Position numbers and translations under genes: made by a program. Shown piece by piece: positions 16,224-18,794 of a DNA stretch of 64,000 nucleotides. The stretch's first letter is position 1, and each line of letters starts with the position of its first letter. Below the pieces are notes generated by a model, which searched no databases, was not told the DNA's origin, and saw only the letters and a program-made list of their open reading frames with translations. The DNA comes from Shigella phage Ag3, in the sequence record FJ373894. One strand, given 5' to 3'.

Positions 16224-16550
16224 TTATTTGCGCAGGGCAACCACGAGTTCAGCGAGTTCACCCATGGTCGGGTCGTCGCCTTTACTGCCCAGCCAGCCGT
16301 CGTCGATTTCGACCTGAAACTCTTCTTCGAGGTCCATTACGATTTCGATGGCATCCAGTTCATCACCGCCGAGGTCTTTCTTGGTGCGGAGACCAGCCAG
16401 CTTGTCCAGGGCATCGTTGATTACCACTTCGGCATCGACGATCCCTTTGATGCTACTCTTGTCCTCATCACTGACTTCCAGATTCAGATTGTCAGTGGCG
16501 TACTGAGCCAGATGACGCATGACTTCAACATATGTTGGTTTACTGCTCAT
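16224..16550 (-). CDS. acyl-carrier-protein-like protein with Glu at the phosphopantetheine-Ser position
   Basis: [19 protein letters not shown] aligns to ACP LGADSLDTVELVMALEEEF, with DSL replaced by DEL; GGAGA RBS. Confidence 0.55.
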   Translation of the reverse strand: [108 protein letters not shown]

Positions 16551-16592
16551 GCTACTTCTCCCAAAGAAAGGCGGGTTGCCCCGCCCGTTGGA

Positions 16593-18794
16593 TTAAATTT
16601 TGATCTCTTTCTCTGCCAGTTCGGCAGTGACCTTGTACTTCACACCATCCACTTCAACTTCCATGGTGGACTCTTCCAGGTCGAGGTCGGTGAACCAGCC
16701 GTGGCCAGCAACGATACCATACACCACTTTAGACAGCGTCTTGTTCAGGGCGCGGACTTCGGTGATGGCCGCCTTGGCAGCAGCGTCGATCCAGTTTTCG
16801 ATCAGCTGTTTCTGTACGGCTTCAGGCACGGCAGTGATCGCAGGAGACTTCACGAATGCCTCGTACTCTTTCAGGGCATTGGCGATGAACAAGTCACCCG
16901 CATTGAGTTTCTTGTTCTCGGCAATCTTTTTCTGTACTGCCGCGATGCTAGGCAGAGAAGACGCCCCAGCGATCTTAACGTTCAGCTCACGGCTCATGTA
17001 GACATCCGTGGAGTCCTTCAGTTCGGTCTTCGGTGAGAAGCCGTAATCGCGGATGCCGTAGGAGGACAGGAACTCGGCCGCCTCAGCGCCGTACTGTACT
17101 GCCAGGCCTTTGGCGTTGCCTTTGCCAACCAGTTCATCACGGAAGAACTTCAGCACCTTCTGCTTGCCTTTCAGGGCTTCCAGACGGACGTTGTCAGCAA
17201 AGAACTGAGCAGCACTGATGTTCTTGACCATGGCGCGGTTGACCAGCGGTACGCTTTCCAGGTTCAGGACAAACACTTCCGGACCACCAAACACATGGAC
17301 GCCCATCTGACACAGATTGGTTACAACTTCAACATCAGCCCTGAACGGCAGAGTCTTCACGTTGATGATGCCGTCTTTGACGATGGTGTAGTTGCGCCAC
17401 TGGAAAGTATCCAGTTCTTCAGGCAGACCGAACTTCTTCTGCACGAACTCCGGAATCGCCACAGTGCCGTGTTGGACAGTGCGTACACTGATATTAGGGC
17501 GTTCGGAGTTATAGACCAAATCGCTGATTGGCACAACACCCAGATCGTTGGTAGGTTCGAACGTCGGGTTCCACTCTTCGTGCTCGGCCAGCTTGAGAGC
17601 CAGGGCTTTGCGCTCTTCTTTGGACTCGGCGTTCGCGATCTGTTCTGCCAGCTTGTCTTCGGTATCGTCCAGTTTCTGAGCCGTACCGCGACCGATGCTC
17701 TTGTAGGAGAACATAGGATGTTTGGTAGCAACACACACGCCAGCTTCAGCCAGATACGTCAGCACGTCAACGACGGTCGTCGCATCTTCAGCTGGAACCA
17801 GGTCATAGTCAATACCGTCAACGCCGCGCAGCTGGTCATCAACGATGGCCTGGGTCAGATCAACTTTGATGTTGGAGTAGTCCTGCTTGGTGAAGCAGTT
17901 GCTGTACTGTTTGATGAAGCGAACGTCACCAGTTTTCTTCAGTGCAGCCCACACCAGGTCTGCGTCCATGATGTGTACGCCGTAGAACGCCAGCACGTAT
18001 GCCGCCTGGATGTCCGCCAGTGCATCAAGCTGGTCGATCATGTTAGGATTGACGACCCACAGCTTCGTGACGCTCTCAGGGATGCTCACGTGGCCGATAG
18101 GATGGTCTTCATCCGGCTGTACCGCCAGCACAGTTGCTACGCCGTTTTCAACGTAGATGGCATGATCATACAGCAACGGAACATCAACAACCACTTTCGG
18201 CACCGAGGACTTCAGTACGTTTTCCAGCTCGGTCTGATATTCGGTCTGGCCTTCGGCGAACACGTGAGTCGCGCCGGAACGTTCAGACATCAGAGCCAGC
18301 AGTTCGCGGTTGCAGTACCAGCCGTATTCGATGAATGTGACGTTGTCGAAAGCGGAAGGAAGTTTTTCGGCGGTCTCCAGGATCTCATTGGAGCGCCAGC
18401 AGTTGTCATAACCATCGGTCATGAACGCCAGGTTGTTGACATAGCCAGGCTTCTTCAGACTACGAGCGGTGTCTACAGCCAGACCCAGAGGTTCCACGAA
18501 TCCAGTGCATCCGGACGGTTGTAGGAAGCGGTCGATCAGTTTGTTCAGCTCGCTCAGGTCAGATGCTGCACTAACCTGACGGCCAGCGAACACAGTACCA
18601 AAGTCGCCACGGGATGAGAAATACAGAACACTCACAGTGTCTTCCGGCTTCACCAGAGAAGGCAGGTTCTCCTTCAGATGCTTACGGACTTCAGGGAGCG
18701 CACGGTACATCGAATAAGAGATGTCCACAACGATTACATGGTTGGACGGGGCAGCAGTCGCAACCGCATTCTTAAATTCTAATGATTCAATCAT
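16593..18794 (-). CDS. von Willebrand factor A (VWA) domain protein
   Basis: VIVVDISYSM and FMTDGYDN motifs at N-terminus typical of VWA domains; start moved to ATG at 18794. Confidence 0.6.
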   Translation of the reverse strand: MIESLEFKNAVATAAPSNHVIVVDISYSMYRALPEVRKHLKENLPSLVKPEDTVSVLYFSSRGDFGTVFAGRQVSAASDLSELNKLIDRFLQPSGCTGFVEPLGLAVDTARSLKKPGYVNNLAFMTDGYDNCWRSNEILETAEKLPSAFDNVTFIEYGWYCNRELLALMSERSGATHVFAEGQTEYQTELENVLKSSVPKVVVDVPLLYDHAIYVENGVATVLAVQPDEDHPIGHVSIPESVTKLWVVNPNMIDQLDALADIQAAYVLAFYGVHIMDADLVWAALKKTGDVRFIKQYSNCFTKQDYSNIKVDLTQAIVDDQLRGVDGIDYDLVPAEDATTVVDVLTYLAEAGVCVATKHPMFSYKSIGRGTAQKLDDTEDKLAEQIANAESKEERKALALKLAEHEEWNPTFEPTNDLGVVPISDLVYNSERPNISVRTVQHGTVAIPEFVQKKFGLPEELDTFQWRNYTIVKDGIINVKTLPFRADVEVVTNLCQMGVHVFGGPEVFVLNLESVPLVNRAMVKNISAAQFFADNVRLEALKGKQKVLKFFRDELVGKGNAKGLAVQYGAEAAEFLSSYGIRDYGFSPKTELKDSTDVYMSRELNVKIAGASSLPSIAAVQKKIAENKKLNAGDLFIANALKEYEAFVKSPAITAVPEAVQKQLIENWIDAAAKAAITEVRALNKTLSKVVYGIVAGHGWFTDLDLEESTMEVEVDGVKYKVTAELAEKEIKI

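Follow-up and report, generated by a model that had tools for sequence, protein, structure and literature searches.

What use would a bacteriophage have for an acyl carrier protein (ACP) that lacks the residue on which carrying depends? The question is raised by Shigella phage Ag3 (sequence record FJ373894), of which we analyzed a stretch of 64,000 nucleotides, hereafter the window. On its minus strand, directly downstream of a gene for a 733-residue protein with a VWA domain, the window encodes a 108-residue ACP-like protein that has glutamate in place of the serine to which the 4'-phosphopantetheine cofactor of ACPs is attached. Since glutamate or aspartate always takes the place of the cofactor serine in this family, the protein is probably a binding decoy or adaptor, and we tentatively propose that it is a non-modifiable decoy that binds host ACP-client proteins. 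The features on which this argument depends are the following.

16224..16550, minus strand: gene for the ACP-like protein, 108 amino acids, a member of phrog_4154, recognized as an open reading frame (ORF) with PF00550, PHROGs and PDB matches.
16293..16382, minus strand: residues 57-86, the acidic surface of helix II, loop and helix III, equivalent to the ACP recognition helix; residues 58-84 within it are 63% identical to residues 31-57 of Escherichia coli AcpP.
16359..16361, minus strand: codon GAA for Glu64 at the phosphopantetheine-serine position, placed by gap-free alignments to the Bacillus subtilis and E. coli ACPs.
16593..18794, minus strand: gene for the 733-residue VWA-domain protein (phrog_2426), with its ATG at 18794 and its stop codon at 16593-16595.

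Several lines of sequence comparison identify the 108-residue protein as ACP-derived. It matches PF00550 (PP-binding) over residues 59-102 with 25.0 bits (E 2.4e-5), above the family cut-off of 20.8 bits, and PF14573 (PP-binding_2) with 27.3 bits, under that family's cut-off of 32 bits. PHROGs assigns it to phrog_4154, 'acyl carrier protein', with an E value of 6e-57, and phmmer matched 95 ACP chains in the PDB, the best with an E value of about 1e-5. BLASTP against E. coli AcpP aligned residues 58-84 with AcpP residues 31-57 in helices II and III at 17 of 27 identities (63%) and found nothing alignable outside residues 58-84, while the matches to NCBIfam ACP models were likewise confined to residues 53-88 and reached at best 38.4 bits against a cut-off of 71. 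The original prediction, that the product aligns to ACP helix II with DEL where ACPs have DSL, is thereby confirmed by phmmer, Pfam and BLASTP. The structure prediction that it called for leans toward the four-helix-bundle fold of ACPs, in that the 11 best Foldseek matches in the PDB to an AlphaFold2 model built from 21 homologues are all ACPs (target-normalized template modelling score 0.58-0.65), although the E values are weak (0.85-3.5) and the model has a predicted local distance difference test score (pLDDT) of 72. The protein is also strongly acidic (26 Asp and Glu residues, net charge approximately -15, pI 4.2). E. coli AcpP is equally acidic, and the charge was therefore inherited rather than newly acquired.

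Phmmer searches of the PDB, Pfam and BLASTP agree, without a gap, in placing Glu64 on the ACP attachment serine. The surrounding motif reads GGD[E/D]LD in 21 close homologues (58-96% identity) and DEL or DDL in 23 of 23 Ackermannviridae-type loci in IMG/VR. Among 1.84 billion representative proteins, profile searching brought up eight full-length relatives at greater distance (P0134-P0139, P0141 and others), and D[E/D]L is present in each of them. Across approximately 50 distinct relatives, down to approximately 20% identity, the attachment column is thus glutamate or aspartate and never serine. This exclusive conservation of a carboxylate fits the idea, advanced from the sequence, of a charged mimic. 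We also considered an alternative attachment serine elsewhere in the protein and rejected it. The original prediction had singled out a serine elsewhere in the motif of homologues as an observation that would count against it, and among the approximately 50 relatives there is none within the motif or near it; no conserved serine was found in the remainder of the family alignment either. As a hydroxyl candidate only T95, which lies in a 'DDPT' loop, is invariant, and it is replaced by serine in two distant relatives.

The residues that are conserved around the lost serine are those of an ACP docking surface. Conservation is concentrated in residues 55-101, whereas the N-terminal half varies freely and evolves fast. 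In the close family 34 positions are invariant, among them K57, L60, G61, G62, D63, L65, D66, I68 and E69 and, further on, E75, E77, I82, D84 and W86. Nine of these (D63, L65, D66, I68, E69, E75, E77, I82 and D84) align one-for-one with AcpP D35, L37, D38, V40, E41, E47, E49, I54 and D56, which we take to be the surface recognized by ACP-client enzymes. The gene has a ratio of nonsynonymous to synonymous substitution rates (dN/dS) of 0.20-0.30 in comparisons with four genera, and is therefore under purifying selection and its product functional; with a dN/dS of 0.07-0.16 for the neighboring VWA gene, the ACP-like gene is 2-4 times less constrained than its neighbor.

We found no carrier machinery to go with the protein. 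The annotation of the complete genome of the related Yersinia phage CAU_YEP3 contains no phosphopantetheinyl transferase and no fatty-acid, polyketide or nonribosomal peptide synthetase enzyme (ketosynthase, acyltransferase or adenylation enzyme), and in none of the loci that we examined is the ACP-like gene adjoined by a phosphopantetheinyl transferase gene or by a gene for acyl, polyketide or peptidyl processing. Because glutamate or aspartate replaces the serine and neither a phosphopantetheinyl transferase nor an acyl-processing enzyme was found, the ACP-like protein is barred from receiving 4'-phosphopantetheine.

Any account of this protein has to accommodate what we observed, namely its homology to ACPs, the loss of the serine, the conservation pattern, purifying selection, the lack of carrier machinery and the gene arrangement. 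In the decoy reading that we tentatively favor, an ACP derivative would have given up carrier chemistry and kept only its docking surface, and selection would maintain the acidic face of helices II and III together with the carboxylate at the former attachment site. Presumably made alongside the early and middle genes, the protein would dock on one or more host ACP clients as a non-acylatable competitor, with the carboxylate of Glu or Asp presumably substituting for the phosphodiester of holo-ACP. The outcome to be expected is that some host process depending on ACP would be blocked or rewired; phospholipid synthesis, lipid A synthesis and a regulator that senses ACP are examples.

Comparison with known systems makes the decoy idea plausible, its precedent being inhibition by apo-ACP. 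Unmodified E. coli ACP strongly inhibits glycerol-3-phosphate acyltransferase and arrests growth (PMC3896788), and so offers a functional model in which an ACP without its cofactor still docks on a client; unlike an evolved inhibitor, however, it is the host's own protein, and the inhibition is an artefact of overexpression. By analogy, the closest concept is the mitochondrial ACP (mACP) of apicomplexans (Plasmodium; Toxoplasma, PDB entry 3CE7; PF14573), which has likewise lost the attachment serine; in the phage protein this loss goes together with a retained acidic helix II. In Plasmodium the serine has become phenylalanine, the replacement residue lies within the interface with Isd11, and the protein is a pure binding subunit (PMC8547962). 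The differences are that in mACPs Phe, Cys or Gly, and not a carboxylate, has taken the place of the serine, that their partner is the LYR protein Isd11, that they belong to a eukaryotic organelle rather than a phage, and that the phage protein scores below the PF14573 cut-off. Bacterial AcpP itself (PF00550; the B. subtilis ACP in complex with AcpS, PDB entry 1F80) shares with the phage protein its small size, its acidity and the identity in helices II and III, and ACPs are the phage protein's best structural neighbors. By contrast, the phage protein has Glu or Asp at the equivalent of Ser36 and with it no 4'-phosphopantetheine site, an N-terminal part longer by approximately 30 residues, an additional conserved loop before helix IV, scores far under every NCBIfam ACP cut-off, and no phosphopantetheinyl transferase or acyl-processing enzymes annotated in CAU_YEP3.

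Four points weigh against a decoy aimed at the host. The strict adjacency of the VWA gene and the intergenic hairpin in most Ackermannviridae genera are left unexplained by a purely host-directed role, as are a family-specific insertion that lengthens helix I and loop I and the invariant loop 'W..G...DDPT.GEL'. The structural model of the ACP-like protein is only moderately confident, and there is no nameable host target.

The adjacency calls for a closer look at how far the pairing extends. The ACP-like protein gave tblastn matches in 270 phage records, and among the matches listed all are in Ackermannviridae-type genomes of approximately 140-160 kb apart from one in the jumbo Pseudomonas phage HRDY3, where the match is partial and falls on a DSL-type ACP. 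The VWA protein occurs in 502 records, including those of Straboviridae (Slopekvirus and Karamvirus-like phages), Bacillus phage PBS1 and Rhizobium phages. A downstream ACP-like ORF is present at 23 of 75 VWA-encoding loci in IMG/VR, and none of these 23 has a VWA protein with less than 50% identity to that of the window. At more than 50 VWA loci of T4-like phages, jumbo phages, PBS1 and Rhizobium phages no ACP-like gene was found within 5 kb, even at E values up to 50, and unrelated proteins are encoded next to the VWA gene in Thanatos-1, Miro, PBS1 and a metagenomic phage. Where the pair exists, the order of VWA gene, hairpin and ACP-like gene survives divergence of the ACP-like protein to 48% (L010), 34% (L088) and approximately 20% identity, the last in Erwinia phage vB_EamM-Bue1 (MG973030.1). 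There a 99-residue ACP-like ORF with the motif 'MDELDYIEF' directly follows the VWA gene (L007:7310-7609); the ORF is unannotated, and the record has no coding sequence between the VWA gene and the next. One ackermannvirus departs from this order: within 5 kb of the VWA gene of Aeromonas phage phiA8-29 (L039, KY914485.1) there is no ACP-like gene, no Aeromonas phage is among the tblastn matches listed, and the slot after the VWA gene (7283-9033) is occupied by a 262-residue protein and an HNH homing endonuclease. As judged from these genomes, the ACP-like and VWA genes share an operon-like cassette of VWA gene, hairpin and ACP-like gene that is conserved across most Ackermannviridae and only there. 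The link between the two is real within the family and putative as a functional one; adjacency is weak evidence for a functional link because Ackermannviridae genomes are highly syntenic overall. The pairing inferred by the original prediction holds, then, for most of this family, while the VWA family mostly lacks an ACP-like gene and Glu-type ACPs exist without a VWA gene.

In and around the pair, three further features lie on the minus strand.

16569..16586, minus strand: intergenic GC hairpin with a 7-bp stem and T-rich tail, terminator-like, between the VWA stop codon and the ACP-like start codon.
16197..16220, minus strand: terminator-like hairpin directly after the ACP-like stop codon, with a 10-bp stem (reported on the plus strand), followed by TACTTT on the minus strand.
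16171..16198, minus strand: weak sigma-70-like match TTTACT-16-TATTAT downstream of the pair, 9 of 12 consensus matches.

In the window the two genes are in the same frame and 42 nt apart, and the spacer reads GGGCGGG-GCAA-CCCGCC, TTTCTTT and then the ribosome-binding site GGGAG, 8 nt upstream of the ACP-like gene. A GC hairpin with a T-rich tail is always present in the 37-44-nt spacers of Ackermannviridae, with stems that vary by genus (GGGCGGG, GGCGGG, GCCGGG, GGCCGGG, GGGGGCC) through compensatory changes; with stems differing and position constant, it is structure rather than sequence that is kept. Spacers this short leave no room for a promoter, and the two genes are therefore probably co-transcribed. 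In most genera the spacer is 37, 38, 41, 43 or 44 nt long and the genes out of frame, and in genomes like that of Serratia phage 3M the distance is 882 nt, with in-frame stops along the way. The in-frame relation seen in the window is thus not conserved, which excludes a fusion of the VWA and ACP-like proteins by stop-codon readthrough, a candidate that we rejected on these grounds. The hairpin after the VWA stop codon is retained in the 3M-like genomes, with the ACP-like gene 882 nt away, and therefore belongs to the 3' end of the VWA gene as a terminator or stabilizer of its mRNA. The layout given in the original prediction, with the VWA gene upstream and a GC hairpin between, stands, except that its count of 734 residues is reached only by including the stop codon, and that its 'early promoter' is only a consensus match, since sigma-70-like sites are barely enriched in the region (4 found versus 2.3 expected).

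The VWA protein appears to be a separate large-phage protein, far more widespread than the ACP-like protein. Its AlphaFold2 model (pLDDT 88.7) confirms a VWA alpha/beta fold at residues ~1-195, followed by a beta-sandwich (~200-248), a helical region (~250-320) and an alpha/beta C-terminal region of approximately 430 residues. Residues of the metal ion-dependent adhesion site (MIDAS) can be read directly from its sequence.

18711..18725, minus strand: MIDAS motif D24-I-S26-Y-S28.
18504-18506 and 18414-18416, minus strand: the further MIDAS residues T97 and D127, respectively.

Across 74 members of the family, the most distant at 27% identity, T97 and D127 never vary, and conservation of D24, S26 and S28 is 90% or higher. 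Over the first ~300 residues the best structural matches are ArnB, ITIH, Sec24-type proteins and a Catenulispora VWA protein, whereas a match to BchD covers only the generic VWA domain. The beta-sandwich that follows the VWA trunk is built in part from a strand preceding the VWA domain, which is the core arrangement of ArnB and Sec23/24-type proteins. Identity to Sulfolobus ArnB (8S05, 5A8J), ITIH1 (6FPY), the Sec23/24 trunk and barrel and Catenulispora 4FX5 is 10-17%; unlike these proteins, the phage protein carries the C-terminal region of ~430 residues, which has no counterpart in them, and is presumably cytoplasmic. That region gave no Pfam match at E values up to 10, only VWA hits in a PDB profile search, and only orthologues and generic VWA proteins in a Foldseek search of BFVD. 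No Zn-ribbon/FHA (ArnA) or Sec23-type partner was noticed in the neighborhood annotations, for which no dedicated search was made. The VWA family (loci L041-L085, and L008 in PBS1) extends over very large phages, among them contigs of 300-510 kb, PBS1 and Rhizobium phages, and to SP-15 by a structural (Foldseek) match only; its MIDAS is always conserved and its genes sit among early or replication-type genes.

An AAA+ partner of the kind that the original prediction had suggested, with the VWA protein in the role of CobT, did not emerge. No MoxR, CobS or BchI-type ATPase is annotated in the complete CAU_YEP3 genome, Pfam detected none in ten larger hypothetical proteins, none adjoins the VWA gene in those of the 75 loci for which Pfam data or annotation existed, and none is among the called neighbors at L003-L005. 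The phage architecture also differs from those of CobT, BchD, ViaA and NorD-type VWA proteins. We therefore rejected a CobT/MoxR-type system.

Serine-less ACPs are not confined to the cassette. Among phage ACP homologues in IMG/VR, DSL is kept at 58 of 80 loci, including both ACPs of HRDY3, and a DSL ancestor is therefore likely. On three unrelated large-phage contigs that have no VWA gene, a DEL-type ACP is encoded by itself amid genes of replication and nucleotide metabolism, with genes for dUTPase, primase, gp32 and SNF2 as neighbors, and approximately 25 non-Ackermann sequences among the best 148 representatives have D[E/D]L, a share that is biased upward because the query profile favors glutamate or aspartate at this column. 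Glu-type ACPs without a VWA neighbor imply that the change from serine to a carboxylate arose repeatedly and independently of the VWA gene. A group of metagenomic ACP-like proteins of 113-140 residues with DEL or DDL (P0184, P0206, P0210, P0220, P0232, P0243, P0253, P0257 and P0280) have N-termini that resemble signal peptides ending in a lipobox-type cysteine and are probably bacterial lipoproteins; they may represent an exported, and necessarily unmodified, bacterial ACP-like lipoprotein family.

Against this background we weighed readings other than a host-directed decoy. The one that survives best, though we regard it as unlikely, is that the VWA protein has in the ACP-like protein a ligand or subunit of its own, the two acting as one complex and Glu/Asp64, or some other invariant acidic side chain in helix II, completing metal coordination at the MIDAS, by analogy with the ligands of integrin I-domains, anthrax-receptor VWA domains and the MIDAS domain of Rea1/MDN1. 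Such a role would suit an intact and conserved MIDAS, the occurrence of only carboxylates at the former serine position, the probable co-transcription across a promoter-less 37-44-nt spacer, and a gene order that holds in 23 of 23 Ackermannviridae-type IMG/VR loci as well as in the diverged L010, L088 and Bue1. It sits poorly with the more than 50 VWA loci that have the same conserved MIDAS-flanking motifs and no ACP-like gene within 5 kb, with phiA8-29, whose VWA gene likewise lacks such a neighbor, with the Glu-type ACPs that occur without a VWA gene, and with the 882-nt separation in 3M-like genomes. In addition, overall synteny makes the adjacency weak evidence, and the ACP-like protein evolves at 2-4 times the rate of its supposed partner. 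Somewhat less likely again is a two-component module in which the carboxylate, seated in the VWA MIDAS, would tether or gate the VWA machine to host ACP clients, or, in a variant, in which the ACP-like protein would serve as a LysW-like covalent Glu carrier.

We consider it improbable that the protein is a generic acidic decoy of ACP descent, for instance a mimic of DNA or another nucleic acid or an anti-defense protein, with a target unrelated to ACP clients. Small size and strong acidity, a fast-evolving N-terminal half and a location in an early/middle accessory region beside an NAD-salvage-type gene pair would all be in keeping with such a function. The strongest constraint, however, falls residue by residue on the ACP client-recognition helix, which is not expected of a protein with a new target, and the equal acidity of E. 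coli AcpP deprives the charge of its force. PADLOC models, the means by which we looked for a relation to defense systems, gave no meaningful match, that is, none beyond noise.

Still less credence attaches to a carrier with non-canonical attachment, which would bear an amine amide-linked to the glutamate or aspartate in the style of LysW/ArgW or would be modified on Thr95. The strictness of Glu or Asp at the old attachment site and the invariance of T95 (Ser in two distant relatives) within a conserved loop could be explained in this way, and these phages do make hypermodifications of DNA derived from amino acids, the relative CAU_YEP3 encoding ADDT, aGPT-Pplase, a pyridoxal-phosphate enzyme and a P-loop kinase. 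Yet no ATP-grasp, adenylating or transferase gene adjoins the ACP-like gene in any locus, LysW has a different fold and uses its C-terminal glutamate, and the reading is pure analogy; to our knowledge, moreover, the published hypermodification pathway needs no carrier protein. Finally, the idea that the gene is a decaying, functionless remnant of a phage ACP, for which the likely DSL ancestor (DSL in 58 of 80 loci) and one frameshifted fragment (P0028) might speak, is effectively refuted by the selection and conservation data, namely a dN/dS of 0.2-0.3, a full-length copy in 269 of the 270 phage records, 34 positions that never vary in the close family, a conserved replacement residue, and a good ribosome-binding site.

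The genomic setting of the pair is that of an ackermannvirus. A DNA search with positions 16000-19100 matched 229 phage records, among them those of Shigella phage ChubbyThor at 97.7% identity and of Salmonella phage SKML-39 at 95%. The two phages belong to the genus Agtrevirus (Ackermannviridae, Aglimvirinae), which identifies the window, on sequence similarity, as Agtrevirus-like phage DNA of the family Ackermannviridae. Around the pair lies a minus-strand early/middle block that encodes a helicase, RNase H, a late sigma factor, the clamp and clamp loader, RegA and an aGPT-type thymidine-hypermodification enzyme. One small gene of this block touches the VWA gene itself.

18787..18957, minus strand: small ORF with a conserved 56-residue core and an acidic tail, annotated in ChubbyThor and CAU_YEP3.

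Read from its first ATG (19014) this ORF would encode 75 residues, and it overlaps the VWA start by 8 nt. Both the ORF and its overlap are conserved at 22 Ackermannviridae loci, and no such ORF was detected upstream of the VWA gene at T4-like or jumbo-phage loci; the cassette may have a third member in this ORF. Further upstream, a 547-residue ORF (19361-21004, minus strand) is a chimera made by an in-frame deletion: its residues 1-222 are 99% identical to a 284-residue ribose-phosphate pyrophosphokinase-like protein of ChubbyThor and its residues 220-547 match residues 227-554 of a 554-residue nicotinamide phosphoribosyltransferase-like protein of the same phage with 99% identity, the two parts meeting at a common 'FVE'. 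With approximately 870 nt missing, the NAD-salvage-type gene pair is probably inactivated in the window phage, and it is entirely absent from CAU_YEP3. A few genes downstream of the VWA and ACP-like pair, a conserved ORF of approximately 150 residues (14141-14599, minus strand; L007:8576-9037 in Bue1) contains in both phages a 'VVDGSHR' motif that recalls ParB/sulfiredoxin-type domains.

In our literature searches both members of the pair appeared for Ackermannviridae in annotation-level mentions only, with no functional work and no remark on the missing serine. Where records name the ACP-like protein at all, they call it 'acyl carrier protein', a name that is misleading for its interpretation as an "auxiliary metabolic gene". 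Approximately 270 sequenced phages carry it, several of them candidates for therapy or biocontrol, and the neighboring 733-residue VWA protein is widespread in large myoviruses. In bacteria ACP is highly connected, serving fatty-acid, lipid A, phospholipid, biotin and lipoate synthesis and contacting regulators such as SpoT. If the ACP-like protein is indeed a decoy for ACP clients, evolution would have supplied these phages with a natural inhibitor or probe for the contacts between ACP and its clients in Enterobacterales, and the family would represent a second, independent case, after the apicomplexan mitochondrial ACP, of an ACP that has become a binding protein and nothing more.

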